Program-made: the position numbers and the translations under genes
In this document: piece by piece, positions 1 to 13,460 of the stretch
Position numbering within the stretch: the stretch's first letter is position 1
Layout of the letters: each line of letters opens with the position of its first letter
Notes under the pieces: generated by a model
The model's database searches: none
The model's input: the letters and a program-made list of their open reading frames with translations, nothing else
What the model was told of the DNA's origin: nothing
Assembly (NCBI GenBank): GCA_963787125.1
Contig: CAWBBV010000006.1
Coordinates: forward strand, 32,001 to 96,000
Length of the DNA: 64,000 nucleotides
Direction: 5' to 3'
Source of the DNA: an uncultured delta proteobacterium
GTDB lineage: Bacteria > Desulfobacterota > Desulfuromonadia > Geobacterales > DSM-12255

Positions 1-616
1 GCTCTGCCGTTTCCCTGATAAAATCGTCAATCCGTTCGACAGCTTTCTCTCGTCCTGGCAACAGCCAGTGATTGATGCAGAACCGTTCGCGACCTACAAC
101 AGCAAATACGGGGGTATAGCAGAGTTTGCCGTTGTATGTGGTTTGAGCACCTTCTCGTTTGGGCGCAAACTGCTCAAAAATACTTGGATCAATATCGCAA
201 GGGATGTAACCTTCAGCTCCCGGTTCAGCAGTGATGGTTGCCTGGGAAACAATCTTTGCGCCGACCCGCTTGAGACCGGTTATTTCCTCTTTGCCATATT
301 TCTCCAGATGCATGGCAACAGCTCGCTCTTTGGGGAGTTTGCCAAAGCCGAGCGATTTCTTGAGCAGTTTCTCTTCCCGTGCCAGCCAGGCAAGATCAGT
401 GTAACTAGTCCGGCGTAGGGAAATGTTTAGTAACAGCGGGATCAGATGTTCCTCTTCCCGGAAGCCGTAGTCGATCTTCTTGACCCGCACCTCGCTTCTG
501 ATTGCTCGAATCAAATCGAGACGGCGTATGAGGGTGGTGAGCAACTCCAATCCTGCTACGGAAGTTAGTGTCTGTCGGGCTGCTACATACTGGAAACCAA
601 GATTGTCTTTCACCAT
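1..616 (-). CDS. IS1380-family-like DDE transposase, N-terminal ~205 aa (3'-truncated by window edge)
   Basis: Hand-translated, absent from ORF track: MVKDNLGFQYVAARQTLTSVAGLELL...YIPCDIDPSIFEQFAPKREGAQTTYNGKLCYTPVFAVVG...HWLLPG. AGGAG RBS upstream of ATG at 616. The LTSxAGL, DiD, EGa..Y.g..Y.P and L.PG pattern resembles IS1380 transposases. Confidence 0.7.
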   Translation of the reverse strand, partial: MVKDNLGFQYVAARQTLTSVAGLELLTTLIRRLDLIRAIRSEVRVKKIDYGFREEEHLIPLLLNISLRRTSYTDLAWLAREEKLLKKSLGFGKLPKERAVAMHLEKYGKEEITGLKRVGAKIVSQATITAEPGAEGYIPCDIDPSIFEQFAPKREGAQTTYNGKLCYTPVFAVVGRERFCINHWLLPGREKAVERIDDFIRETAE

Positions 617-698
617 TCGGGTGAACTCCTTCACTGCAATTATGTGAAGGATTATAGCATGTTACGTTACATTAGCCCAATAGTTTTGCGGATTGGGG
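1..698 (-). mobile_element. IS1380-family-like insertion sequence, left end (element continues beyond window start)
   Basis: Transposase-like ORF 616->1. On the minus strand the putative end reads TTAA|CCCCAATCCGCAAAA (boundary 698/699); a CC-initiated end next to an AT-rich target is typical of IS1380. The other end is outside the window, so the IR and target duplication cannot be confirmed. Confidence 0.6.
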
Positions 699-1657: not shown

Positions 1658-2350
1658 CTATTTGAGTTCTGCTGCCGGTTCTTCAGGAAGGTTCTCTTCA
1701 ACGGCAGGAGAACGAGTCTGTTTTTCATCAACTTTCTTCTCAATCGACCTATCAGCAGGCTCTTTTGCTGGATCTACACTCTCTTTAGATTGAGCAGAAG
1801 AGCTCTTGAGTTTATCATTAGTGCCTTCATCAACACTTGCTACCGGTTTTGCAACAACAGACCTATGTTCCAACGAAGATTCGGGCCCATTTTTTTGCGC
1901 GGCTTTTTCTGCAGAAACAAGTGCCTGCTTCAATCTCACATTCTCAGCCTGAAGCATGGAAAATGATTCAACCAGAGTTTTGAGGAGGTTTTCCGGCTTA
2001 GCTGCAGTTATCAGCTTCTCATTCTCTTTTTTCAACTGTTCACTATCGGATTTAAGCTTCTCATTGCCTGCCGTAACTTCAGAAAAATCTGCTTCAAGTT
2101 TTTTGAGCTTCAGCATCGTGGCATCTTTATCTTCCGCTAGTTTATTGAGCTTCAGCACCATGGCTTCATTATCTTCCGCAAGTTTTTTGCTCTTTTCCTG
2201 AAGATCACTATAATCACCCTTGGTACTATCAAGTGACTGTTTGAGCTGAATCGATTCCTGTTCTTTAGCCTTATAGGTTCCTGAAGATACGCAGCCACTA
2301 ACTATTAAGACTACAACAGATAAAATTGAAAGTTTTCTCATCATCTCCAT
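1658..2350 (-). CDS. Coiled-coil lipoprotein, hypothetical (resembles N-terminal half of OmpA/MotB-type lipoproteins)
   Basis: GGGAGG RBS before ATG 2350; lipobox VSGC; long heptad K/E/L region; charged low-complexity tail. Confidence 0.7.
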   Translation of the reverse strand: MEMMRKLSILSVVVLIVSGCVSSGTYKAKEQESIQLKQSLDSTKGDYSDLQEKSKKLAEDNEAMVLKLNKLAEDKDATMLKLKKLEADFSEVTAGNEKLKSDSEQLKKENEKLITAAKPENLLKTLVESFSMLQAENVRLKQALVSAEKAAQKNGPESSLEHRSVVAKPVASVDEGTNDKLKSSSAQSKESVDPAKEPADRSIEKKVDEKQTRSPAVEENLPEEPAAELK

Positions 2351-2474
2351 AAATTCAACCTCCCGGTAAATAATTTCGGTAAATAATAACATCAGCTGTT
2401 AGTTTGTCAATTCAACATAAACGCTGATTGACAGTTATTGATCAGCTTCTATAATCACAATTACGGGAGACAAA

Positions 2475-3809
2475 ATGACTGATTTGATCGAAAGCGCACG
2501 TACCTACGCAATCAACGCCCACCAAAGGATAAACCAGCTGCGTAAATATACTTTTCAGCCGTACGATGTCCATCTTAAAGCAGTTGCAGACCTTGTGGCA
2601 ATGGTTACAGATGATCAAGAGATGATTGCAGCTGCCTGGCTGCACGATACGGTAGAGGATACACCTGCAACATTCGAAGATCTTGAGCGGGAATTTGGTT
2701 ATGGAGTTACCAGGCTTGTCATGGATCTTACCGATGTAAGTAGACCAGACGATGGCAATCGCGCCACAAGAAAGGAGATAGATAGGGATCATTCAGCCCT
2801 TGCCTCCACAAGAGCCAAAAGCATCAAACTGGCTGATCTGATAGACAACTGCCTTGACATCTGCCGGCATGATCATGCATTCGCCGTAGTCTATCTACAA
2901 GAGATGGTTGACTTGTTGGCAGTTCTCACTGAAGGAGATCAGCGTCTTTACAAAAAAGCACGAAAAACTGTAGAAATTTCAGCTAAAAAGCTACAGATTG
3001 ACGTTCCGCAGCCATCTGAGAATTTTGGTAAACATATCGATTTTAATGTAGGACCATACCAGCAGGGAGAAAGTGACCATGGGATCAGGCTGATTACAAC
3101 TGTTTTCAGCGCCAGAGATATCCTCGAACCGATACATTCATATGACGCGCAGCGACTAAAACCATCACTTTTCAGCGAGATTCTTGCTCTAAAAAGTGGA
3201 GTGATTGGCGTTCGTGACAAAGGTCTTGTAAAGCGCTATCTCCTGGAAGAGGATGTTCGTGCCGGCAGAGTAGTATTGAGAGCAATTGAAAAACGGCAAC
3301 AGGTTGAATTTGATACTCCTCTGGCAACAGTTATCCATGTATTAACAATGTTCTCGTGCTGCTTTGTCATGATTAACAATGAAGCAGTGGGTGTGATTAC
3401 CAGACGGGATATTGAGAAACCTGTTGTACGAATGTGGCTATTCGGGATTATCATTTTGATCGAGATCTTGATGGTAAAACATATAAAGTCAAGCTGGCCG
3501 AATGATGAATGGCAAGCTTTTCTAACAGAGGGGCGGTTGGAAAAAGCGATTGAGCTACAAAGGTTGAGGTATGAGCGCGGCACAAAAGCAGACCTGGTTG
3601 ATTGCCTTCAGTTTTCAGACAAACTGCATATTGCCGTAAACAAGCCGGACTTCATAGAAAGTACAGGATTCCTCTCCAACAAAGCGGCAAAGCGAGCTAT
3701 AAAAGATCTTGAGTCTCTCCGCAACAATCTTGCCCACGGTCAGGACATAACCAGCCAGGACTGGCCGCCGATAGCTCGACTGGCTAGACGTGTGCAGGGG
3801 GTATTCTAG
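2475..3809 (+). CDS. HD-domain protein (RelA/SpoT-hydrolase/Mesh1-like) fused to a CBS-like domain and a C-terminal HEPN-like domain
   Basis: N-terminal RK...PYxxH, AAWLHDTVED, DLTD, IKLADLIDN; central VGVITRRDI (CBS-like); C-terminal LRNNLAHG (Rx4H). Confidence 0.8.
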   Translation: MTDLIESARTYAINAHQRINQLRKYTFQPYDVHLKAVADLVAMVTDDQEMIAAAWLHDTVEDTPATFEDLEREFGYGVTRLVMDLTDVSRPDDGNRATRKEIDRDHSALASTRAKSIKLADLIDNCLDICRHDHAFAVVYLQEMVDLLAVLTEGDQRLYKKARKTVEISAKKLQIDVPQPSENFGKHIDFNVGPYQQGESDHGIRLITTVFSARDILEPIHSYDAQRLKPSLFSEILALKSGVIGVRDKGLVKRYLLEEDVRAGRVVLRAIEKRQQVEFDTPLATVIHVLTMFSCCFVMINNEAVGVITRRDIEKPVVRMWLFGIIILIEILMVKHIKSSWPNDEWQAFLTEGRLEKAIELQRLRYERGTKADLVDCLQFSDKLHIAVNKPDFIESTGFLSNKAAKRAIKDLESLRNNLAHGQDITSQDWPPIARLARRVQGVF

Positions 3810-4000: not shown

Positions 4001-5194
4001 TTAAATTGAAAAATCCTCAATTTTGTTCTCTGTTTTCAGCAACAGCAAATACCCGGCAACACCGGAAAAAAGTGAACCGAGTATAATGCCAAGTCTGTCC
4101 GCATATGAGAAGACCTTGCCATCACTAAAAGCCAACCCGTCGATAAAGAGACTCATTGTAAAGCCGATTCCGGTAAGGAGGGCAACACCGTACAGCTGCC
4201 TCCAGCCGGCATTTTTAGGCATGGTTGCCAGGCCGAACTTGATTGCAACCCAGCTGAAGCCAAAGACGCCAAACTGCTTGCCGATGAACAGACCAAGCAT
4301 AATTCCAAGAGGTACTGGTCCAGACATCTGCTTGAGAGCTATTTCTTGAAGGTTAATACCTGCGTTCACAAAAGCAAAAAGTGGCAGTATCATGAAAGCA
4401 ACCCAGATATGCAGATCGTCTTCCAGACTTTTGGCAAGTGTATGGACAATGCCGTGACGATCTTTACTCTCAAGCGGGATCATGAAGGCAAGTGCAACAC
4501 CAGCAAGGGTTGCGTGAACTCCCGACTTGAGAACTGACACCCAGAGGAAAACTCCGACCATGATATAGGCGCCCCTTTTGACCACTCCGCCGATATTCAT
4601 CAAAGCAAGGATGACAAGGGCCGCAAGCGCAAAAGAGATTGAGATAATAGAAATCTGTTCCGTGTAAAAGAGAGCGATAACAACAATTGCGCCGATATCA
4701 TCGATTATCGCCAACGCCATCAAAAATATTTTCAAAGAAACCGGAACCCTTTTACCCAAAAGGGAGAGTATTCCAAGAGAAAAAGCAATGTCGGTCGCTG
4801 TCGGGATTGCCCACCCTCTCATTGATACCGGATCGTTCCAGTTAAATGCGGCGTAAATCAGTGCAGGAACCACCATGCCACCAAATGCGGCGATTCCTGG
4901 CAGCGCTACCTTTTGCAGTGTTGAAAGATGGCCATTAACAATCTCCTGCTTAACCTCAAGTCCTACAAGCAGAAAAAAAACAGCCATGAGACCGTCATTT
5001 ATCCAGAGCAGCAGTGGCTTGCCGATAAAAAGAGCGCCGAATCTAAGTTCAACAGGGGTGAGCAGCAAGGCATCATAGGCATTGGTCAGAGGTGAGTTCT
5101 TAAGCACCATCGCTGCGATTGTCACAAACATGAGGACAATGCCCGCAGATGATTCCTTCTGAATAAATTCCTCTACTTTATCTTCAATAGCCAC
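4001..5194 (-). CDS. nhaA: Na+/H+ antiporter NhaA
   Basis: WINDGLMAVFF, GWAIPTATDIAF, LAIIDD, KSGVHAT, GIGFTMSLFI. Confidence 0.97.
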   Translation of the reverse strand: MAIEDKVEEFIQKESSAGIVLMFVTIAAMVLKNSPLTNAYDALLLTPVELRFGALFIGKPLLLWINDGLMAVFFLLVGLEVKQEIVNGHLSTLQKVALPGIAAFGGMVVPALIYAAFNWNDPVSMRGWAIPTATDIAFSLGILSLLGKRVPVSLKIFLMALAIIDDIGAIVVIALFYTEQISIISISFALAALVILALMNIGGVVKRGAYIMVGVFLWVSVLKSGVHATLAGVALAFMIPLESKDRHGIVHTLAKSLEDDLHIWVAFMILPLFAFVNAGINLQEIALKQMSGPVPLGIMLGLFIGKQFGVFGFSWVAIKFGLATMPKNAGWRQLYGVALLTGIGFTMSLFIDGLAFSDGKVFSYADRLGIILGSLFSGVAGYLLLLKTENKIEDFSI

Positions 5195-6127: not shown

Positions 6128-7882
6128 CTAGCGTCCTGCCTTGCTTTCAGGAGCTGCTGGCAGACTTACCTTGGAGCTAAAAATTTGAATCTGTTCGCGA
6201 CAGGCTGATGAAATTCTGTCACCGTACTCCTTAAAACACTCCAACAATCGCCCCTGTCCAGGCACTACCTTCGGGCAGAACTTCTCGATGTCGGTGGCGC
6301 AGATTCTCCGGGCTTCCTCCAGTCGGGCACTGTATTTATCTACTTTCTCCCGGCATATCGGGGCAATTTCCTGCTTGTGTCCGGAGAGACAGAGAATCAG
6401 CTCACCCTTGCCTGGCGGGATTTCCTTGCAGAATTTTTCAATCTCATCCATGCAAGGGTAACCTGCACTGACAATAAGCGACGCAACCTTTTCTGCCTTG
6501 TCAACCCAACCGCCTCCCATGGCCTTGTAGAGATTGGCATAGGAAATAAAGAGTGCAGCACGCAACTGAGCCAGATTGAGTTCGGCCGGGAAAAGCTGCT
6601 GCTGGGCATTAAGGACGGTGAGATAGGGAGCATAGCCGCCGTCGAACTGGAGTTTTGCAAGGTGCTCGTACTCCTTATTTGCCTTGACAAGCCGTTGCTG
6701 CGCCTGAAGTTGCCTGGTCAGCTTTTCGCGGACCACCAGAGAATTCTCCACATCAGCGAACGCATTTTGAATAGCTGCCTCATAGCTGAGGAGTGCGGCC
6801 TTCCTTGCTGCTTCGGTCTGCGCAACCTGGCCGGAGATCGCTCCGGCGGTGAAGATCGGCCCGGTGATCGAACCGCCGTAACTCCAGGTCCGGCTCGGGC
6901 CCTTGAAAAGATCGGAGAGATTGGCGCTGGCAAAACCATAATTGCCGGTCAGGGAAATTGTCGGGAAATAGAGCGCTTTGGCCGCTCCGATCTGGGCGTT
7001 GGCGGCGATCAGGCTCTGCTCTGCCTGAGCAAGGTCCGGTCGGCGTTCGAGCAGCTGGGACGGCAAACCGGCCGGAACAGCAGGATACATGAGATCGAGG
7101 ATCGTCTTGCCCCGGGCAATAGGTCCCGGATTGCGGCCAAGCAGTATCGACAGGGCGTTCTCAAGTTGCACGATCTGGGATTCGAGCTGCGGAATGGCAG
7201 CTGCTGCGGTTTCGTACTGAGAACGGGCCTGCTCGACATTCATCTGGGAAATCTGGCCGTACTGGAACTGCAATTCGAATAGTTTCACCGACTCGGCGTA
7301 GGCCGCCAGATTGCTTTTGGCTACGGCCAACTGTTCGTCAAGGCCGCGCAGTTGCAGGTAATCAACCGCAACCGAGGCGACCAGGGAGAGGATCACCCCA
7401 CGGCGTGCTTCTTCGGTGGCAAGCAGGTTTGCCCGGGCAGTTTCGTCGAGCCTTCTGACACGACCCCACAGGTCGAGTTCCCAGCTTGCGCCGGCAAAAA
7501 GTTGCAGCGAATTATTCGGGTTACTGACACCGGTTGGAAACGGCGAGGCATTGTTCTCGCTGCCCCGCTGCCGGTCAGCCCCGCCGCCATATCCCAGCTG
7601 GGGGAAAAGCGGGGAGCGAACCTGAGTGAGCACGGCCGCAGCCTGCTCGACGTTGGCTGCGGCGACTTTGACGTTCTTATTGTTCGTAAGGGACTCGGTA
7701 ATCAGACTGTCAAGGACCGGATCCTGAAACTGCTTCCACCATTCGGCGTCCACTGCGGCCTTGGCCTCCTTATCCTCGTAGGTGAAGGATTTAGGCGTTT
7801 CCACCTCCGGCCGGCGGTAGTCAGGGCCGACCATGCAACCAGCCAGAGAGCCTGCAAGAGCAATAACAAGTATTCTGCGCAT
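6128..7882 (-). CDS. RND efflux outer-membrane factor lipoprotein (NodT/OprM family) with two C-terminal Cys-rich GLG1-like repeats
   Basis: LAGCMVGPDY lipobox, WELDLWG, LLERRPDL, LYKAMGGGW; tail repeats C..[DE]IEKFC....PG.G....C......I...CRE. Confidence 0.92.
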   Translation of the reverse strand: MRRILVIALAGSLAGCMVGPDYRRPEVETPKSFTYEDKEAKAAVDAEWWKQFQDPVLDSLITESLTNNKNVKVAAANVEQAAAVLTQVRSPLFPQLGYGGGADRQRGSENNASPFPTGVSNPNNSLQLFAGASWELDLWGRVRRLDETARANLLATEEARRGVILSLVASVAVDYLQLRGLDEQLAVAKSNLAAYAESVKLFELQFQYGQISQMNVEQARSQYETAAAAIPQLESQIVQLENALSILLGRNPGPIARGKTILDLMYPAVPAGLPSQLLERRPDLAQAEQSLIAANAQIGAAKALYFPTISLTGNYGFASANLSDLFKGPSRTWSYGGSITGPIFTAGAISGQVAQTEAARKAALLSYEAAIQNAFADVENSLVVREKLTRQLQAQQRLVKANKEYEHLAKLQFDGGYAPYLTVLNAQQQLFPAELNLAQLRAALFISYANLYKAMGGGWVDKAEKVASLIVSAGYPCMDEIEKFCKEIPPGKGELILCLSGHKQEIAPICREKVDKYSARLEEARRICATDIEKFCPKVVPGQGRLLECFKEYGDRISSACREQIQIFSSKVSLPAAPESKAGR

Positions 7883-7883
7883 G

Positions 7884-10800
7884 TCAGTGTCCCCCTTCCT
7901 GAGCGGAATCATGCTTCTCCGGCAGGCTCCCGTCATGGGGGCTATCAGGTGGATGCCCTCCAGCGGCGGCTTTCTTCAATTTCTTCGCCTTGTTGCGCTC
8001 GGTGAGGTTGTCAAAAAGGTAGAAGAATAGCGGCACGTAAAGCATTGCCAGGGTGGCTTCACCGATCATCCCCCCCATGATACCGGTACCGATGGAATGG
8101 CGGGCATTGGCGCCGGCGCCGGTGGCTATTGCCAGCGGTAGCACGCCGAAGATGAAGGCCAGCGAAGTCATGATGATCGGTCGGAAGCGCTCTTCGCCGG
8201 ACCGGATCGTGGCGTCCATAATTGACAGGCCCTGTTCGCGCAATTCGACGGCAAAGGTCACCCTGAGGACCGCATTCTTGGCCCCCAAACCGATCAGTAC
8301 CAGCAGGCCGATCTGGAAATAGACATCATTGTTGAGACCGCGCATCCAGTTGAAGCCGAGGGCGCCGAGGATACCGAACGGAACCGCCGTCATGACAGAG
8401 CCGGGCAGGGTCCAGGACTCGAACTGGGCGGCCAGCAGGAGGAAGACGATGATCAGTCCGAAGGCAAAGGCAGCGGCAGATGAACTGCCCGATTTCTTCT
8501 CCTCGAAGGCCATGCCCGACCAGGCAAAGCTGTAGCCTGCCGGGAGTGCTTCACGGGCCACTTCTTCCATCACATTGAGTGCCTCGCCCGAGCTGAAGCC
8601 TTCACTGGCATTCCCGGTCACCTGTGCAGCCGGGAAGCCGTTAAAGTGCGGCACCAGATCGGGATTCGTCACGAATTTGGTTGTCACCAGCGCAGACAAC
8701 GGCACCATCTGGCCATTGTTCGACCGGGTATAGAGCCGCGTTATGTCAGACGGAGTCTTGCGGTAGGGGGCGTCGGACTGGAGGATGACATTCCAGATCC
8801 GGCTATACTGGTTGAACTGGCTGACCTGAATCGAACCGAACTGGGCCTGCAGCGCGCTGTAGACGTCAGAAACCGGCACACCGAGCAGCACCGCCTTGTC
8901 CCGGTCGACCTCGGCCTTCAGCTGCTGTGAAGCAGCACGGAAGGTGGAGTTAAGACCGACCAGTTCTTTGCGCTGGCGGGCCTTGGCAAGGAACTGCTGG
9001 GTGACCTCATACAGTCGGGCCGGATCACCGCTCGACTTGTCCTGGACCCAGAACTCGAAGCCGCCGGTGGTGCCGATCCCCGGGATAGCCGGCGGCGGAA
9101 TCGGGATGGTCACACCCTCCTTGATTTCACGCGCAGCGCCGCCTATCTGTTTCAGTACAGCGTCGGAACTTTCCTTTTTCGCACGTTCCTTGCTTGAATA
9201 ACGCTCCTTGAAATCCTTGAGAGTCACGAAGAAAGTTGCCACATTCGGCTTGTACTGGCTGTCGATCAGGCTGTAGCCGCCGATCATCGTCCGGTTTTCC
9301 ACGGCCGGATTCTTGGCGAACAGCGCGTCCACCTTCATGGACATATCCGAAGTGCGGTTCAGACTGGCGGCATCAGGCAGCATGATCTGCGTAAACACAT
9401 AGCCCTGGTCCTCATTGGGGACGAAACTGGTCGGGATCGTTTTGAACAGGTGCACCAGACCAAACATCATAACGGCCAGCAGCACGAAGGCCACTGACAT
9501 CCGCTTGATCATCAGCACCACAGCATCGCCAAACATGAGAGTGAACTTGTCGAACATCCGGTTGAACCAGGCGAAGAAGCCTTTCTGGGGCGGCGGGTTA
9601 TGCTTCAGCATAACGCCGCACATGGCCGGGGTCAGGGTCAGCGCCACGAACCCTGAAAGGGCTACGGACACGACGATGGTGATGGCGAACTGCTTGTAAA
9701 GCTGGCCGGTCGTGCCGGGGAGGAAGGCGGCCGGGATGAAGACACACGCCATAACCAAAACCACCGCGATCAGCGAAGTGCCAATCTGCTCCATCGCCAG
9801 GATGGTGGCTTCTTTTGGCTGCATATGCTTCTTGATCATGTTGCTTTCCACGTTCTCCACGACGACGATCGCATCGTCGACCACCATGCCGATCGCCAGG
9901 ACGATGCCGAACAGGGTCAGCAGGTTGATGGAAAAGCCCATGGCCAGCATGCCGGCAAAGGTGCCAATAAGCGAGACAAAGACAGCCACCGTGCAGATGA
10001 TGGTGGCGCGGAAACTCTGCAGGAACAGGTAGACGACCAGAATGACCAGTATGATCGCCTCGTAGAGGGTTTTAAGAACCTCTTTGATAGAGAGGCGCAC
10101 GAACTCCGTCGTGTCCAGGGCGATGGTGTACTCAATGCCGTCGGGCAGGGTTTTCTTCAGTTCCTCCATGGTCTTGCGGACGCCCTTGGACACCTCGAGA
10201 CCATTGGCGCCGGCCTGTTGGTAGACGATGATCGGGGCGGCCGGCGCACCGTTCAGGCGGTTGTCGTCGATGTACTGCCGGCGGCCGGTCTCGGCGCGAG
10301 CGACGTCCTTGACCCGGACGACGGCACTGCCGTCCTGACTGGCACGGAGGATAATGTTCTCATATTCGGAGGGTTTGACGAACGGCGACTGGGTCACAAC
10401 CGGAAAGGTCAGCTGCACCGACTTGTCACTCGGCTGTGAACCGACCTGGCCGGCACCGAACAGGGCGTTCTGCTTGGAGACTGCAGTCTGGACATCGGTG
10501 GTGGTGATGCCAAGGGAGGCCATCCGGTCAGGGTCCAGCCAGATACGCATGGCCTGGTCCGGCACGCCGAAGATCTGGGCCTGGCCGGCTCCGGGCACCC
10601 GCTTGATAGCATCAAGAACGTAGACGTTGGCGTAATTGGTCACGTATTCTGGCGTGTAGCGGCCGTCCTTGTTGAACAGCGAGATAATCATCAGGGGGCT
10701 CGACGACTTCTTCTGCACCGATACGCCGTACTGCTTGACCGCGTCGGGGAGCTGCGGCATGGCCAGGTTCACCCGGTTCTGGACGTCCACCTGGGCGATG

Positions 10801-11120: not shown

Positions 11121-12362
11121 TCAGTTGCCCTTTTTGGCGGGAGCCTTCTTGGTGTCAGCGGCCGAAGCCGGAATCGGCTGCCCGGGTTGCGGCGGGGCGG
11201 CAGGGACCTTGATCGTTACCGTCACATCGGGGCGCAGCGTCAGACCGCCATTTACCACCACCCGTTCACCGGCCTTGAGCCCTTCGGTTATAAACCAGTC
11301 GCTGCCGATCAAGTCGCCTACCAACACCGGCCGGGCTTCCGCCTTGCTCTCCTTGCTTATGACCCAGACAAAATGTCCCTTTGCCCCCTGCTGCACCACC
11401 CGCTGCGGGACAACGATCGCGTTGGGCCGGATGGCACCCTTGACACGGGCGCGGACATACTGGTTGGGACGAAGAGCGGCTTTGGGATTGTTGACGCTGG
11501 CCCGGATCAGGAACGTGCCGGTCTGGGCGTTGAACGATGGATCGGCAAAGGTTATCCGTCCGGTCTGGGGGAAGATGGAACCGTCGACCTGGACAACTTC
11601 GACCACGTAATTCTGCCCGGCCGGAGGACGAATCTGTCCTTTTTCAACCTGGTCGCGGTAGGTCTTGATCTCGTTTTCAGAAAGGCTGAAGTTGACCCAC
11701 ATCGGCGACAGGACCGCTACAGTCGTCAGCAGGCTGTTCGTCTGATTGAGGTAGGCGCCGTCCTGCTGTAGAGCCGAGGAAGTAATGCCATTGACCGGTG
11801 AGGCTATCGTGCAGTAGGAAAGATTGAGCTGAGCCGTCTGCAGCTGGGCCTTGGCTATCTCCACTGCCGCTGCTGCCGACTCGTAGGCGCCGGTGGCATC
11901 ATCCAGGTCCTTCTGCGAAAGGGCGTTTTTGGCAGTCAGGGGTTTGGTCCGCTCAAGGTTGAGACGGGCCGTCTCCATGGCCGCCTTCTGCCGCGACAGG
12001 GCCGCTGCTGCTGCATCCACCTGGACCTGGAACGGTTTCTTGTCCATCAGGAAAAGGATGTCACCCGCCTTTACCATGGTCCCTTCAGTGTAGACCCGCT
12101 TTTCGAGGAATCCGTTCACCCGTGCCTGGATGTTCACCTGCTGTGAGCTCTGGGTCTGGGCGACATATTCCATGGTAATCGGCGTGTCTTTGGCAACGAC
12201 CTGGGTCACCTCGACCGTCGGCGGCGGTGGTGGTGGCGCCTGCACCTTTTCCTTGCAACCGCTTGCCAGTAGTGCGACAAAACAGGTAACGGCAACCGCG
12301 GCAACACCCGCTGCACCCCTGACTGACCCTGAGCTGACCCGGCTAAAAAAACAATTATTCAT
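11121..12362 (-). CDS. RND periplasmic adaptor (membrane fusion protein)
   Basis: Lipobox ASGC, IQARVNGFL, IASPVNG, LRPNQYVR, EGLKAGERVVV. Confidence 0.95.
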   Translation of the reverse strand: MNNCFFSRVSSGSVRGAAGVAAVAVTCFVALLASGCKEKVQAPPPPPPTVEVTQVVAKDTPITMEYVAQTQSSQQVNIQARVNGFLEKRVYTEGTMVKAGDILFLMDKKPFQVQVDAAAAALSRQKAAMETARLNLERTKPLTAKNALSQKDLDDATGAYESAAAAVEIAKAQLQTAQLNLSYCTIASPVNGITSSALQQDGAYLNQTNSLLTTVAVLSPMWVNFSLSENEIKTYRDQVEKGQIRPPAGQNYVVEVVQVDGSIFPQTGRITFADPSFNAQTGTFLIRASVNNPKAALRPNQYVRARVKGAIRPNAIVVPQRVVQQGAKGHFVWVISKESKAEARPVLVGDLIGSDWFITEGLKAGERVVVNGGLTLRPDVTVTIKVPAAPPQPGQPIPASAADTKKAPAKKGN

Positions 12363-12482
12363 CTTACCCCCCTCTTTGTGCAGTGATCTTTTATCATATT
12401 TTAATCGGCTAGTGTCAATATGGTTTTCCGGAGCAGCTGCGTTTTTTCAAATCGCAACTTGTAACTAGCAACTGATTGCTTT

Positions 12483-13460
12483 CTAACAGAGTTCCCGCAA
12501 CTCCTTACCAGGAATAGAAACCAGCACCACCACCAACTGGCGTCCTTCCGCATTGCGCAGTTCAGTGAACGTCAAGGCAGGAGCGTCAATGGATGCCTCA
12601 TTATGCTTTATTGCCATCTTGTCAACGAAGATTGTTGCGCCCTTCCCCAGCAGATACTCGGCCGGTTTTCCCAGCACATCAGTGACGATCTGCAGATAGG
12701 CTTCACTTTCGCGGTCGTCGCCGCCAAATTCCTGCAGTTGTGCTTCAATCTGCCCGAGACGCTTTTCTACTTCAGCAACATCGAGTTTTTCAGTTGACCC
12801 GGTACTGAGGTCAAATCCCCACCCCTCACGTTCAAGCAGGTTCATCTTTGCCTGAAGCAACGTGCGTCGTCGTTCCAGGTCTTTCCGCTCAGACTTCACA
12901 AAGGCAAGTCGCTTGAGCGCCAGACTGAGCAGATGGTCGTAAGCCCGGCGCATCAGCAGTCGGCGTGCTTGAGTCTCGTCTGCTGCCGGGTCGACGAGAC
13001 GGTGACCGTCGAAACTGACCGTCATTTTGGGGACATCGCGGATAATGATATCGCCCGCCAATTCGGCGCCGAAAATCACTTTTTCCTCTTTCTCCATTGC
13101 CAGCAGGGCAACAATCTGCGGCGAGTCGCCAGCCGGTCCCGCCAAAAACTCGGCAAGGTTCTGATCTTTACTGAAAACATTTTTCAAGTGTTTCCCGGAA
13201 ACAAAAAAACCTTTGAGCCGGTCATCATCTTCAAAGCTGCCCAAAGCCACCGACAGGGGTGCGGGAAAACCGTTCACCAGGGCTACGACGTGATCAATGG
13301 CTTGAATCACCGCCGGTCGCAGTTTTTTCTTATAGCCCGATACCGAGCGCAGCCACGGATCGGTACCGTCCACTGCCCGTTCAATGGCTTCATTGACAAG
13401 TGACTCCGGGTAACTCCCCTGCTTTGCTGTGCCGAAAATGGATTGCAGCAGTTTCAACAT
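12483..13460 (-). CDS. Hypothetical cytoplasmic protein downstream of ppk1
   Basis: Long ORF with GGAGG RBS before ATG 13460; coiled-coil segment; no recognised motif. Confidence 0.75.
   Translation of the reverse strand: MLKLLQSIFGTAKQGSYPESLVNEAIERAVDGTDPWLRSVSGYKKKLRPAVIQAIDHVVALVNGFPAPLSVALGSFEDDDRLKGFFVSGKHLKNVFSKDQNLAEFLAGPAGDSPQIVALLAMEKEEKVIFGAELAGDIIIRDVPKMTVSFDGHRLVDPAADETQARRLLMRRAYDHLLSLALKRLAFVKSERKDLERRRTLLQAKMNLLEREGWGFDLSTGSTEKLDVAEVEKRLGQIEAQLQEFGGDDRESEAYLQIVTDVLGKPAEYLLGKGATIFVDKMAIKHNEASIDAPALTFTELRNAEGRQLVVVLVSIPGKELRELC

Follow-up and report, generated by a model that had tools for sequence, protein, structure and literature searches.

Can one gene sense a nucleotide signal, cut RNA in response and then erase that signal? 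The question is raised by the HD-CBS-HEPN gene at positions 2475-3809 of a 64,000-nt stretch of contig CAWBBV010000006.1 (positions 32,001 to 96,000, hereafter the window) from an uncultured delta proteobacterium of the Desulfobacterota. A sequence-only reading had described its product as an alarmone-hydrolase-like HD domain followed by a CBS-like segment and a C-terminal HEPN domain, and had proposed a single-gene nucleotide-sensing RNase switch that serves defense or dormancy. All three domain assignments are borne out by profiles, folds and conservation. With regard to function, we tentatively favor a nucleotide-gated RNase with a built-in alarmone hydrolase that would act in stress or dormancy rather than as part of a classical defense island.

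The window protein is not new in kind, since both its architecture and the core hypothesis were printed in 2013. Anantharaman, Makarova, Burroughs, Koonin and Aravind (2013, Biol Direct 8:15) list a Swt1-like HEPN fusion as "CBS and HD (alr3009), active", give alr3009 and Pelobacter propionicus gi 118580987 as examples and propose, from architecture alone, the single-gene nucleotide-sensing RNase hypothesis for such proteins. These have the same three domains and the conserved Rx4H motif found in the window protein. Their HD is called a generic "HD phosphohydrolase", whereas here it is recognized as belonging to the RelA/SpoT small alarmone hydrolase (SAH) type. From architecture and taxonomy we infer that the window protein is orthologous to alr3009 and the Pelobacter protein; it is 56% identical to a member from Geomonas (Desulfuromonadales). 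A literature search that covered few subscription journals found no assay of any HD-CBS-HEPN member. What is new here is the likeness of the HD to the SAH of phage SSU5, a commoner CBS-HEPN core and a second, independent HD fusion.

Three conserved domains in a single protein

The gene and the parts of its product are laid out as follows.

2475..3809, plus strand: HD-CBS-HEPN gene, 444 aa, ATG start, stop codon at 3807-3809
2475..3008, plus strand: SAH-type HD domain (aa 1-178), with predicted catalytic residues H33, H57-D58, E61-D62, D121 and N125
3009..3086, plus strand: variable linker (aa 179-204), its columns poorly conserved and gapped in alignment A1
3087..3416, plus strand: CBS pair or Bateman module (aa 205-314), two beta-alpha-beta-beta-alpha units by DSSP of the model
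3417..3806, plus strand: Swt1-type HEPN domain (aa 315-444), with an MWLFG motif on its first helix
3720..3737, plus strand: predicted Rx4H catalytic motif RNNLAH (R416 to H421)

A search of a 5.8-billion-protein collection, in which 8000 candidates were scored, yielded 1984 proteins at E <= 1e-3, and the best 120 of these are almost all 435-470 aa long and cover 97-100% of the query. Alignment A1 was made from 42 sequences with 50-72% identity to the window protein. Mean column identity among these HD-CBS-HEPN members is 58%, which across many phyla argues for strong purifying selection on HD, CBS and HEPN jointly, and the residues H33, H57, D58, E61, D62, D121, R416 and H421 are invariant in all 42. 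The AlphaFold2 model of the 444-aa protein has a mean predicted local distance difference test score (pLDDT) of 87.1 and a predicted TM-score (pTM) of 0.83, with pLDDT < 50 confined to aa 185-200. Antisense ORFs (open reading frames) overlapping 2475-3809 were rejected for want of support, as in other loci they recur merely as shadows of the gene.

The hydrolase motif set claimed for the HD can be read intact from the translation (PYDVH at aa 29-33, HDTVED at aa 57-62 and KLADLIDN at aa 118-125), and R23, K24 and N125 are at least 90% conserved in A1. Pfam HD_4 matches the window protein with E 9.5e-14 (51.9 bits, above the cut-off of 27.2) and matches all 42 A1 homologs when these are scanned singly, while the RelA/SpoT models of NCBIfam match through the hydrolase part alone. 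A PDB profile search retrieved Mesh1 at 5e-24 with its hydrolase motifs (RK..PY..H, HD..ED and KLAD..N) aligned with those of the query. In fold comparisons, residues 1-180 of the model superpose on human Mesh1 with a VIA Z of 23.0 and a root-mean-square deviation (rmsd) of 1.8 A over 168 residues, on the Pseudomonas aeruginosa SAH with Z 22.3 and on Corynebacterium glutamicum RelH with Z 22.0; Foldseek concurs that Mesh1 and SAHs are closest. Across the Mesh1 and bacterial SAH crystals (3nr1, 5vxa, 6yvc and 7qod) the range is Z 22-23 and rmsd 1.8-2.2 A over 162-171 residues at 27-28% identity, and these structures, unlike the window protein, have no regulatory or RNase domain. Judged by its motifs and fold, the HD is of the RelA/SpoT small-alarmone-hydrolase type with a predicted intact active site. 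The claimed lack of a synthetase domain also holds. There is none in the ORF, and the only match to PF04607 in the genome is a separate 716-aa Rel on contig C12; a second synthetase was looked for in the genome with this family and not found.

The HD may belong to the PaSpo subgroup of SAHs. It is 41% identical over 153 aa (E 1e-30) to SSU5_099 of Salmonella phage SSU5. As this is the sole RelA/SpoT-like gene annotated in the 100 kb examined of the 103-kb phage record, we take SSU5_099 to be the published PaSpo(SSU5) SAH. That protein was placed in PaSpo by Jimmy 2020 (PMC7229694), where it is reported to neutralize all five toxSAS tested, and Kurata, Takegawa et al. (Sci Adv 2024, PMC11559606) report that it removes the 3' tRNA modification installed by the toxSAS FaRel2. 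Furthermore, supplementary file 5 of Atkinson 2011 lists Pelobacter propionicus gi 118580987 as paSpo. PaSpo SAHs (Atkinson 2011, Jimmy 2020), the SSU5 protein among them, share with the window protein the HD_4 fold and all hydrolase motifs. The identity to SSU5_099 and the listing of the Pelobacter protein suggest that its HD is a PaSpo-type SAH. SAHs are, however, single-domain proteins of ~180-210 aa, whereas the window protein has 265 more residues, made up of the CBS pair and HEPN, and no toxSAS partner; with 444 aa and two further modules after the HD it falls outside the single-domain "small" definition of the class.

The segment that follows the linker had been called CBS-like. Its CBS identity stands and turns out to be fuller than claimed: residues ~207-323 of the model superpose on CBS pairs with VIA Z 11-12 and rmsd 2.1-2.6 A over 103-115 residues, and together with the two units seen by DSSP this argues for a complete Bateman module rather than a mere CBS-like stretch. 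The structures on which it superposes were solved with AMP, ADP/ATP or S-adenosylmethionine. By profile, Pfam CBS reaches E 0.0029 (18.3 bits, below the cut-off of 24) in the window protein and matches 15 of the 42 A1 homologs, at best with 7.2e-8. A G-h-h-x-R-x-D stretch of the pair (G306 to D312) is conserved in A1.

For the C-terminus, the LRNNLAH of the sequence-only reading is present at aa 415-421 (nt 3717-3737), the span 3720-3737 encoding exactly RNNLAH. R416 and H421 are invariant in 42/42 sequences of A1 and in 39/39 of a second alignment, A2, which was drawn from genomic loci; the block M320-W-L-F-G324 is likewise invariant in A1 (42/42). Pfam HEPN_Swt1 (PF18731) matches 34 of the 42 A1 homologs at E <= 0.01 (best 1.5e-6), and the precomputed Pfam lists of several homologs carry it. 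We also modeled the C-terminal 132 residues alone from the 39 sequences of A2 (pLDDT 87.0) and compared this domain-only model with 48,161 representative chains. The eight best matches, with modest Z of 6.8-5.4, are all HEPN proteins, namely a HEPN toxin (Z 6.8, rmsd 2.8 A over 89 residues), AbiF (Z 6.3), SO_3166, two HEPN structural-genomics proteins, Csm6, Cas13bt3 and MtlR. Lower rows hold the C-terminal domain of yeast Swt1 (Z 4.5), the sacsin HEPN and further Csm6, Cas13 and HEPN entries. Over the list as a whole, the Csm6 HEPN appears at Z 5.5 and 4.7. Some of these rows we presume to be HEPN proteins, while for others the identity comes from their titles or the 2013 HEPN survey. Foldseek with the HEPN-only model returned no row at E <= 0.001 (top row AbiF, E 0.68, prob 0.82), and the HEPN-domain profile against PDB sequences gave chance-level rows only (best E 0.2, troponin T). 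We assign the domain to HEPN because HEPN enrichment among the fold rows, the profile hits and the invariant Rx4H point the same way together. The two checks suggested for this end of the protein, a HEPN/Swt1-like fold and conservation of Rx4H, thus both came out in its favor, and the Rx4H site is, as judged from the alignments, intact and under strong constraint. A transmembrane reading of MWLFGIIILIEILMV was discarded, as this segment forms the first HEPN helix in the model, aligns inside HEPN folds and has cytoplasmic domains on both sides.

A common CBS-HEPN core and two kinds of HD

Searching 1.84 billion representatives with the HEPN-domain profile gave 1510 proteins at E <= 1e-3, 840 of them at E <= 1e-10. 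The best 150 representatives were classified with hidden Markov models cut from A1.

CBS-HEPN: 88 of 150, median 265 aa among those starting with M
HD-CBS-HEPN: 32 of 150
HEPN only: 25 of 150, mostly short fragments
HD-CBS-CBS-HEPN: 2 of 150, with the CBS hit split in two
CBS-HEPN-HD: 1 of 150
HD-HEPN: 1 of 150
CBS-CBS-HEPN: 1 of 150

Among these best 150, the core occurs more often as CBS-HEPN lacking any HD (88) than with an N-terminal HD (34). The short proteins annotated as "Swt1 family HEPN domain-containing protein" (~271 aa) and the CBS-HEPN-HD proteins (~464 aa) contain the same CBS-HEPN module as the window protein at 36-38% identity, and the short forms share with it the invariant motifs RMWLFG, DCLQ..DK and LRNxLAH; both differ from it in having no N-terminal SAH. 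Rx4H is invariant in the 32 short forms that were aligned, and a scan of 102 further short forms found it in 90, with no pattern match in 11 and Rx4M in 1. Since the HD-less form is commoner and keeps Rx4H, sensor plus RNase would be the working unit and the HD an add-on.

A tree of the CBS-HEPN region, for which 103 of 156 candidates were used (53 were left out for incomplete domains), separates these forms. Across one branch with a Shimodaira-Hasegawa-like approximate likelihood ratio test (SH-aLRT) value of 100, one side holds 30 rows with an HD, the window protein included, and 3 without, which are probably truncated, while the opposite side holds 69 rows without the HD, the short and CBS-HEPN-HD forms among them, plus P0157. 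With 30 of the 31 HD-bearing rows on one side, the fusion appears to be old and to have been kept, so that a CBS-HEPN ancestor gained its N-terminal SAH in essentially a single event. P0157 (431 aa, starting with V and probably cut at both ends) would be a permuted CBS-HEPN-HD(SAH) form, its HD being SAH-type and 51% identical to the window's. This candidate was not corroborated: the permuted order was found in 0 of 80 metagenome loci retrieved with P0157, of which 29 have HD then CBS-HEPN, 50 HD only and 1 neither.

On the side of the tree without the SAH, P0236 carries a different HD at its C-terminus and has lost the motif's His (LRNNLPY). A search with P0236 gathered 18 clusters (P0236 and the P0268-P0284 group) of 460-473 aa at 97-100% coverage, all starting with M, and LRNNLAH is intact in 17 of the 18. 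The same type of HD also occurs as a separate gene. In locus L176 (5965-7393) a 263-aa CBS-HEPN gene is followed 65 nt downstream by a 190-aa HD gene, the pair closing an enolase-PGM-PFK-PGI row; this separate HD is 51% identical to the fused C-terminal one and unrelated to the HD of the window protein (E 2.4). The C-terminal type best matches NF008137, the "multifunctional CCA addition/repair protein", within the HD region of that enzyme (E 1.2e-13, partial). It also matches CCA tRNA nucleotidyltransferase and, in the PDB, the "Poly A polymerase" entries 3wfo-3wfs at E about 1e-7 (3wfo 9e-8). By sequence comparison, two unrelated HD phosphohydrolases appear to have been recruited independently, at opposite ends, by one CBS-HEPN module.

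These data bear on whether the HEPN domain cuts RNA at all. The protein might instead be mainly a detoxifying or housekeeping hydrolase of (p)ppApp, (p)ppGpp or NADPH, with CBS-HEPN regulating it or binding RNA or the ribosome without cleavage. The closeness of the HD fold to Mesh1, which was solved with NADPH and adenosine 3'-phosphate 5'-phosphosulfate (PAPS), and to SAHs would suit this, as would the missing His of P0236 and the eukaryotic Swt1 HEPN, which Anantharaman 2013 considers likely to bind RNA without being active. Yet the invariance of R416 and H421 in the aligned long forms and of Rx4H in the aligned short forms, with the motif kept by most of the further short forms, argues for retained HEPN catalysis, and the same survey lists the "CBS and HD" group as "active". 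We regard a purely hydrolytic role as very improbable.

The second HD family suggests another possibility, that of an RNA cut-and-heal or tRNA-end enzyme. Here the HD would act on RNA 3' termini, removing a 3'-pyrophosphate, a 3'-phosphate or a 2',3'-cyclic phosphate from HEPN-cleaved RNA or from tRNA CCA ends, and the CBS pair would gate the cycle. HEPN RNases leave 2',3'-cyclic phosphate ends, and the HD of CCA enzymes has cyclic phosphodiesterase and phosphatase activity. The independent fusion of two unrelated HD families to CBS-HEPN, an SAH at the N-terminus and a CCA-repair-like HD at the C-terminus, fits such a role, as do the 17 clusters in which the C-terminal fusion keeps LRNNLAH and the separate HD gene beside the short form in L176. 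The removal of the FaRel2 tRNA modification by the SSU5 PaSpo SAH (PMC11559606) further indicates that HDs of this subgroup are able to work on the 3' end of an RNA. On the other hand, the CCA-enzyme match is limited to the HD region (50.7 bits versus a full-length cut-off of 451), an adjacent HD was seen in one of the five short-form loci examined, and both HDs could instead hydrolyze a shared small-molecule ligand. We consider a cut-and-heal enzyme unlikely, and similarly doubtful the wider proposal of a switch for dormancy and recovery based on reversible RNA damage, in which CBS-HEPN would be a ligand-gated nuclease of tRNA or other RNA and the recruited HD a 3'-end phosphoesterase reversing or completing the HEPN cut.

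Occurrence, gene context and expression signals

Relatives of the window protein occur at at least 468 stretches of one-genome-per-species contigs, of which 80 loci (38-68% identity) were kept for study. These come from Desulfobacterota, many Gammaproteobacteria (including Chromatiaceae, Sedimenticolaceae, Thiodiazotropha and tubeworm symbionts), Synergistota, Acidobacteriota, Verrucomicrobiota, Bacteroidota, Nitrospirota and Campylobacterota. Closer to the window organism the family is sparse. The HEPN-domain profile matched 4 of 61 genomes of its relatives; three of these belong to its genus, and the fourth, from its family, has a weaker short form. A short-form profile picked up the wider CBS-HEPN family in 7 of 401 genomes searched from the phylum. 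Some gammaproteobacterial genomes have two full-length copies (L019 and L021 in one metagenome-assembled genome; L022 and L071 on one contig, 400 kb apart). An accessory gene that is patchy yet highly conserved points to horizontal spread under strong constraint. We also noted a distant 287-aa relative in the window organism's family (genome G017, L085 6990-7853; 31% identity, motif LRNEIAH), which, behind an N-terminal stretch of 120 aa, retains only the last CBS strand and the HEPN and adjoins smc and an ABC-F gene.

Neighbors were clustered from ORFs of at least 80 aa in 79 loci. The window and the 80 loci were taken together for this, and L016 and L031 dropped out for want of a full ORF. 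No conserved operon partner was found across the 79 loci, and no neighbor family extends beyond single clades. The largest cluster is a 694-aa hybrid histidine kinase that ends 6 nt inside the gene start in 13 loci of one gammaproteobacterial clade (L006, L009, L011, L012, L017, L025, L057, L065, L068, L072, L073, L075 and L077). It belongs to a block of secA, argJ, mutT-thiE, kinase and the HD-CBS-HEPN gene in 10-13 loci of Sedimenticolaceae, Thiodiazotropha and tubeworm symbionts, followed by metF, ahcY and metK in 6-8. A separate 860-aa protein, P0147, has HD-CBS-HEPN fused to a C-terminal PAS-histidine kinase. Linkage to RND pumps was considered and dropped, AcrB-like ORFs lying within ~8 kb in 6 of 79 loci only. 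PPK2 genes are found near the gene in L001 and L036, and a Kef-type Na/H exchanger directly upstream in L048 and L052.

In the window itself, the gene is accompanied by the following signals and neighbors.

2428..2455, plus strand: sigma-70 promoter of perfect consensus (TTGACA, 16 nt, TATAAT; 12/12 matches)
2465..2469, plus strand: Shine-Dalgarno GGGAG, 5 nt upstream of the ATG, read from the sequence
2-634, minus strand, running on to the left of the window (11249-12634 of locus L084): DDE transposase, 460 aa and intact in appearance (DDE_Tnp_1_4 E 2.8e-29, DDE_Tnp_1 E 2.2e-8)
911-1537: Slp lipoprotein
1658-2392, minus strand: coiled-coil lipoprotein, divergent from the gene
4001-5194, minus strand: NhaA antiporter, convergent with the gene and syntenic with 9332-10567 (minus strand) of locus L001

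No other perfect sigma-70 consensus exists in the 64-kb window, and none arose in 100 shuffles. In L001 the homolog, which is 68% identical, is also preceded by a 12/12 site and keeps the Shine-Dalgarno region GGAGAC, while the remaining spacer has diverged. The gene is thus predicted to have a strong promoter of its own, and a promoter this perfect and conserved fits a constitutively made enzyme that is gated post-translationally. A search of sequencing runs for expression matched no RNA run; it matched four sediment-metagenome DNA runs of one study, with word shares of 0.07-0.12.

The gene had been described as standing alone in the AT-richer left part of the window near an insertion sequence (IS), and each part of this description agrees with what we found. 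Its neighbors are divergent or convergent and none is conserved across the 79 loci. The left part has a GC content of 0.44-0.45 versus ~0.55 in the window, and the transposase ORF ends at 634, with two genes between it and the HD-CBS-HEPN gene. The genome averages 50.8% GC and the gene 45.5%, the 11th percentile of 2-kb windows. Reading a horizontal island from this composition was rejected as weak, the gene being mildly atypical. Adjacency to NhaA is common to the window and L001 only among the 79 loci; the two NhaA proteins are 84% identical, versus 68% for the HD-CBS-HEPN proteins. Beyond NhaA lies an RND efflux operon. Its surroundings include an outer-membrane efflux protein at 6128-7936 on the minus strand (OEP E 4e-52) with an unusual C-terminal extension of cysteine-rich repeats, which matches Cys_rich_FGFR (E 3.8e-12) in two stretches and, weakly, CHCH. 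To the left of the window, ~8.5-11.6 kb from its start on contig C6 (L084 354-3522), a 796-aa protein that combines two cyclic nucleotide monophosphate (cNMP)-binding domains with an NTE P-loop and a patatin domain directly precedes a 257-aa protein of metallo-beta-lactamase fold, which matches the anti-Pycsar Apyc1 family (109.9 bits, cut-off 50); by their domains, this pair may be a cyclic-nucleotide-controlled lipase with its own phosphodiesterase.

Two points raised in the sequence-only reading, an antitoxin role and co-localization with defense islands, gain no support from the context data. For an antitoxin role a partner is missing: neither a small synthetase nor a toxSAS was found anywhere in the genome or beside the gene, whose neighbors are the Slp lipoprotein, the coiled-coil lipoprotein and NhaA. 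For co-localization with defense islands we sampled three ORFs per side in 23 loci, which were picked from the 41 loci of 14 kb or more so as to cover a broad taxonomic range. The resulting 138 ORFs were picked greedily by length and some may be spurious. None of the 23 loci has a recognizable defense system among these ORFs. At E <= 1e-8, PADLOC models match 9 of the 138, all of them generic domains by Pfam (Nudix-ThiE, a GTPase, FtsX, OmpA, three methyltransferases, a DEAD-box helicase and a histidine kinase), and the other sampled neighbors are metabolic, transport, signaling or housekeeping genes. The window protein itself has no convincing model in PADLOC-DB v2, the best being E 0.0099 and 0.013, both partial. 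The second of these is CARF2--CARF_HEPN, matched over 25 residues at Rx4H, and the window protein is no member of it.

Such results weigh on the possibility of a single-gene anti-phage abortive-infection (Abi) system, in which a phage-induced nucleotide or alarmone would activate the HEPN via the CBS pair and the HD would reset it. HEPN Rx4H RNases are typical Abi or toxin effectors, and a HEPN toxin and AbiF head the fold matches. Patchy spread, the two copies in some genomes, the IS 1.8 kb away and the constitutive promoter are all in keeping with such a role. Queried by itself, the HD finds relatives in 251 phage records, at identities of up to 50.6% and with 80% or more of the domain covered in 124 of the records. 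Such relatives are common on plasmids too (294 records), which suggests an arms-race context. Against this, the matches of the whole protein to plasmids (294 records) and phages (225 records) comprise the HD part only, so that the full-length architecture is on 0/294 and 0/225 and no record covers 80% of the query. In addition to the PADLOC results, the conserved secA-argJ-mutT-thiE-kinase block surrounds the gene in the gammaproteobacterial loci and sequence conservation is unusually high for a defense gene. An anti-phage system thus seems to us a rather improbable account of the family.

Proposed function and its meaning

We return to the reading that we tentatively prefer, a nucleotide-gated RNase with a built-in alarmone hydrolase. 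In this scheme a cytoplasmic, stand-alone three-domain enzyme would be made constitutively and held inactive. Its CBS pair would bind an adenine- or guanine-based nucleotide and set the activity of the HEPN RNase, while the HD would act on an alarmone, (p)ppGpp or (p)ppApp, by stripping off its 3'-pyrophosphate. RNA cleavage would thereby be coupled to a stress signal and be self-limiting, in the order sensor, effector, eraser, and the role of this accessory, horizontally spread gene would lie in stress or dormancy physiology. Of the earlier proposal, the single-gene nucleotide-sensing RNase switch is reasonable and agrees with the hypothesis printed in 2013, whereas its defense-island and antitoxin parts are not supported by the gene context.

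By analogy, Csm6-type HEPN effectors that degrade their own activator may offer a parallel. The Csm6/Csx1 CARF-HEPN effectors of type III CRISPR likewise combine a nucleotide sensor, a HEPN RNase and signal degradation in the same protein. In the window protein, by comparison, the sensor is a CBS pair and not CARF, the eraser is a separate HD, and there is no CRISPR or cyclase context. A CBS pair that controls alarmone metabolism is known from DarB/CbpB of Bacillus and Listeria, which turns a c-di-AMP signal into control of the RelA/SpoT homolog enzyme Rel (PMC9848473). The target of DarB is the synthetase domain of a long Rel, which it controls in trans, and it has no RNase. In sequence, the CBS fold is all that links it to the window protein.

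Several observations weigh against the favored reading. The HEPN_Swt1 match in the window protein itself (E 0.0015, 19.3 bits) does not reach the gathering cut-off of 27.5, and the best HEPN Z of 6.8 lies in the range that the tool flags as possibly generic for helical bundles. The genome's one long Rel has intact hydrolase motifs, so there is no obvious need for an extra (p)ppGpp hydrolase. We know of no alarmone hydrolysis by the CCA-repair-type HD family. If the two unrelated HDs fused to this module have a common role, it would point to RNA ends or to some other 2'/3'-phosphorylated nucleotide. Finally, patchy occurrence and HEPN chemistry would fit defense equally well.

Alarmone signaling and HEPN RNases are two main routes to bacterial growth arrest. 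In hundreds of genomes the widespread and mechanistically interesting HD-CBS-HEPN family links the two physically by way of a nucleotide sensor. That two HD phosphohydrolases were recruited independently yields a sharp and testable prediction, namely that both act on a shared class of substrate. Identifying the ligand of the CBS pair and the substrate of the HD, be it a free alarmone or the 3' end of an RNA, would establish a new regulatory tie between the stringent response and RNA decay, or might reveal instead a new single-gene immune or dormancy switch.

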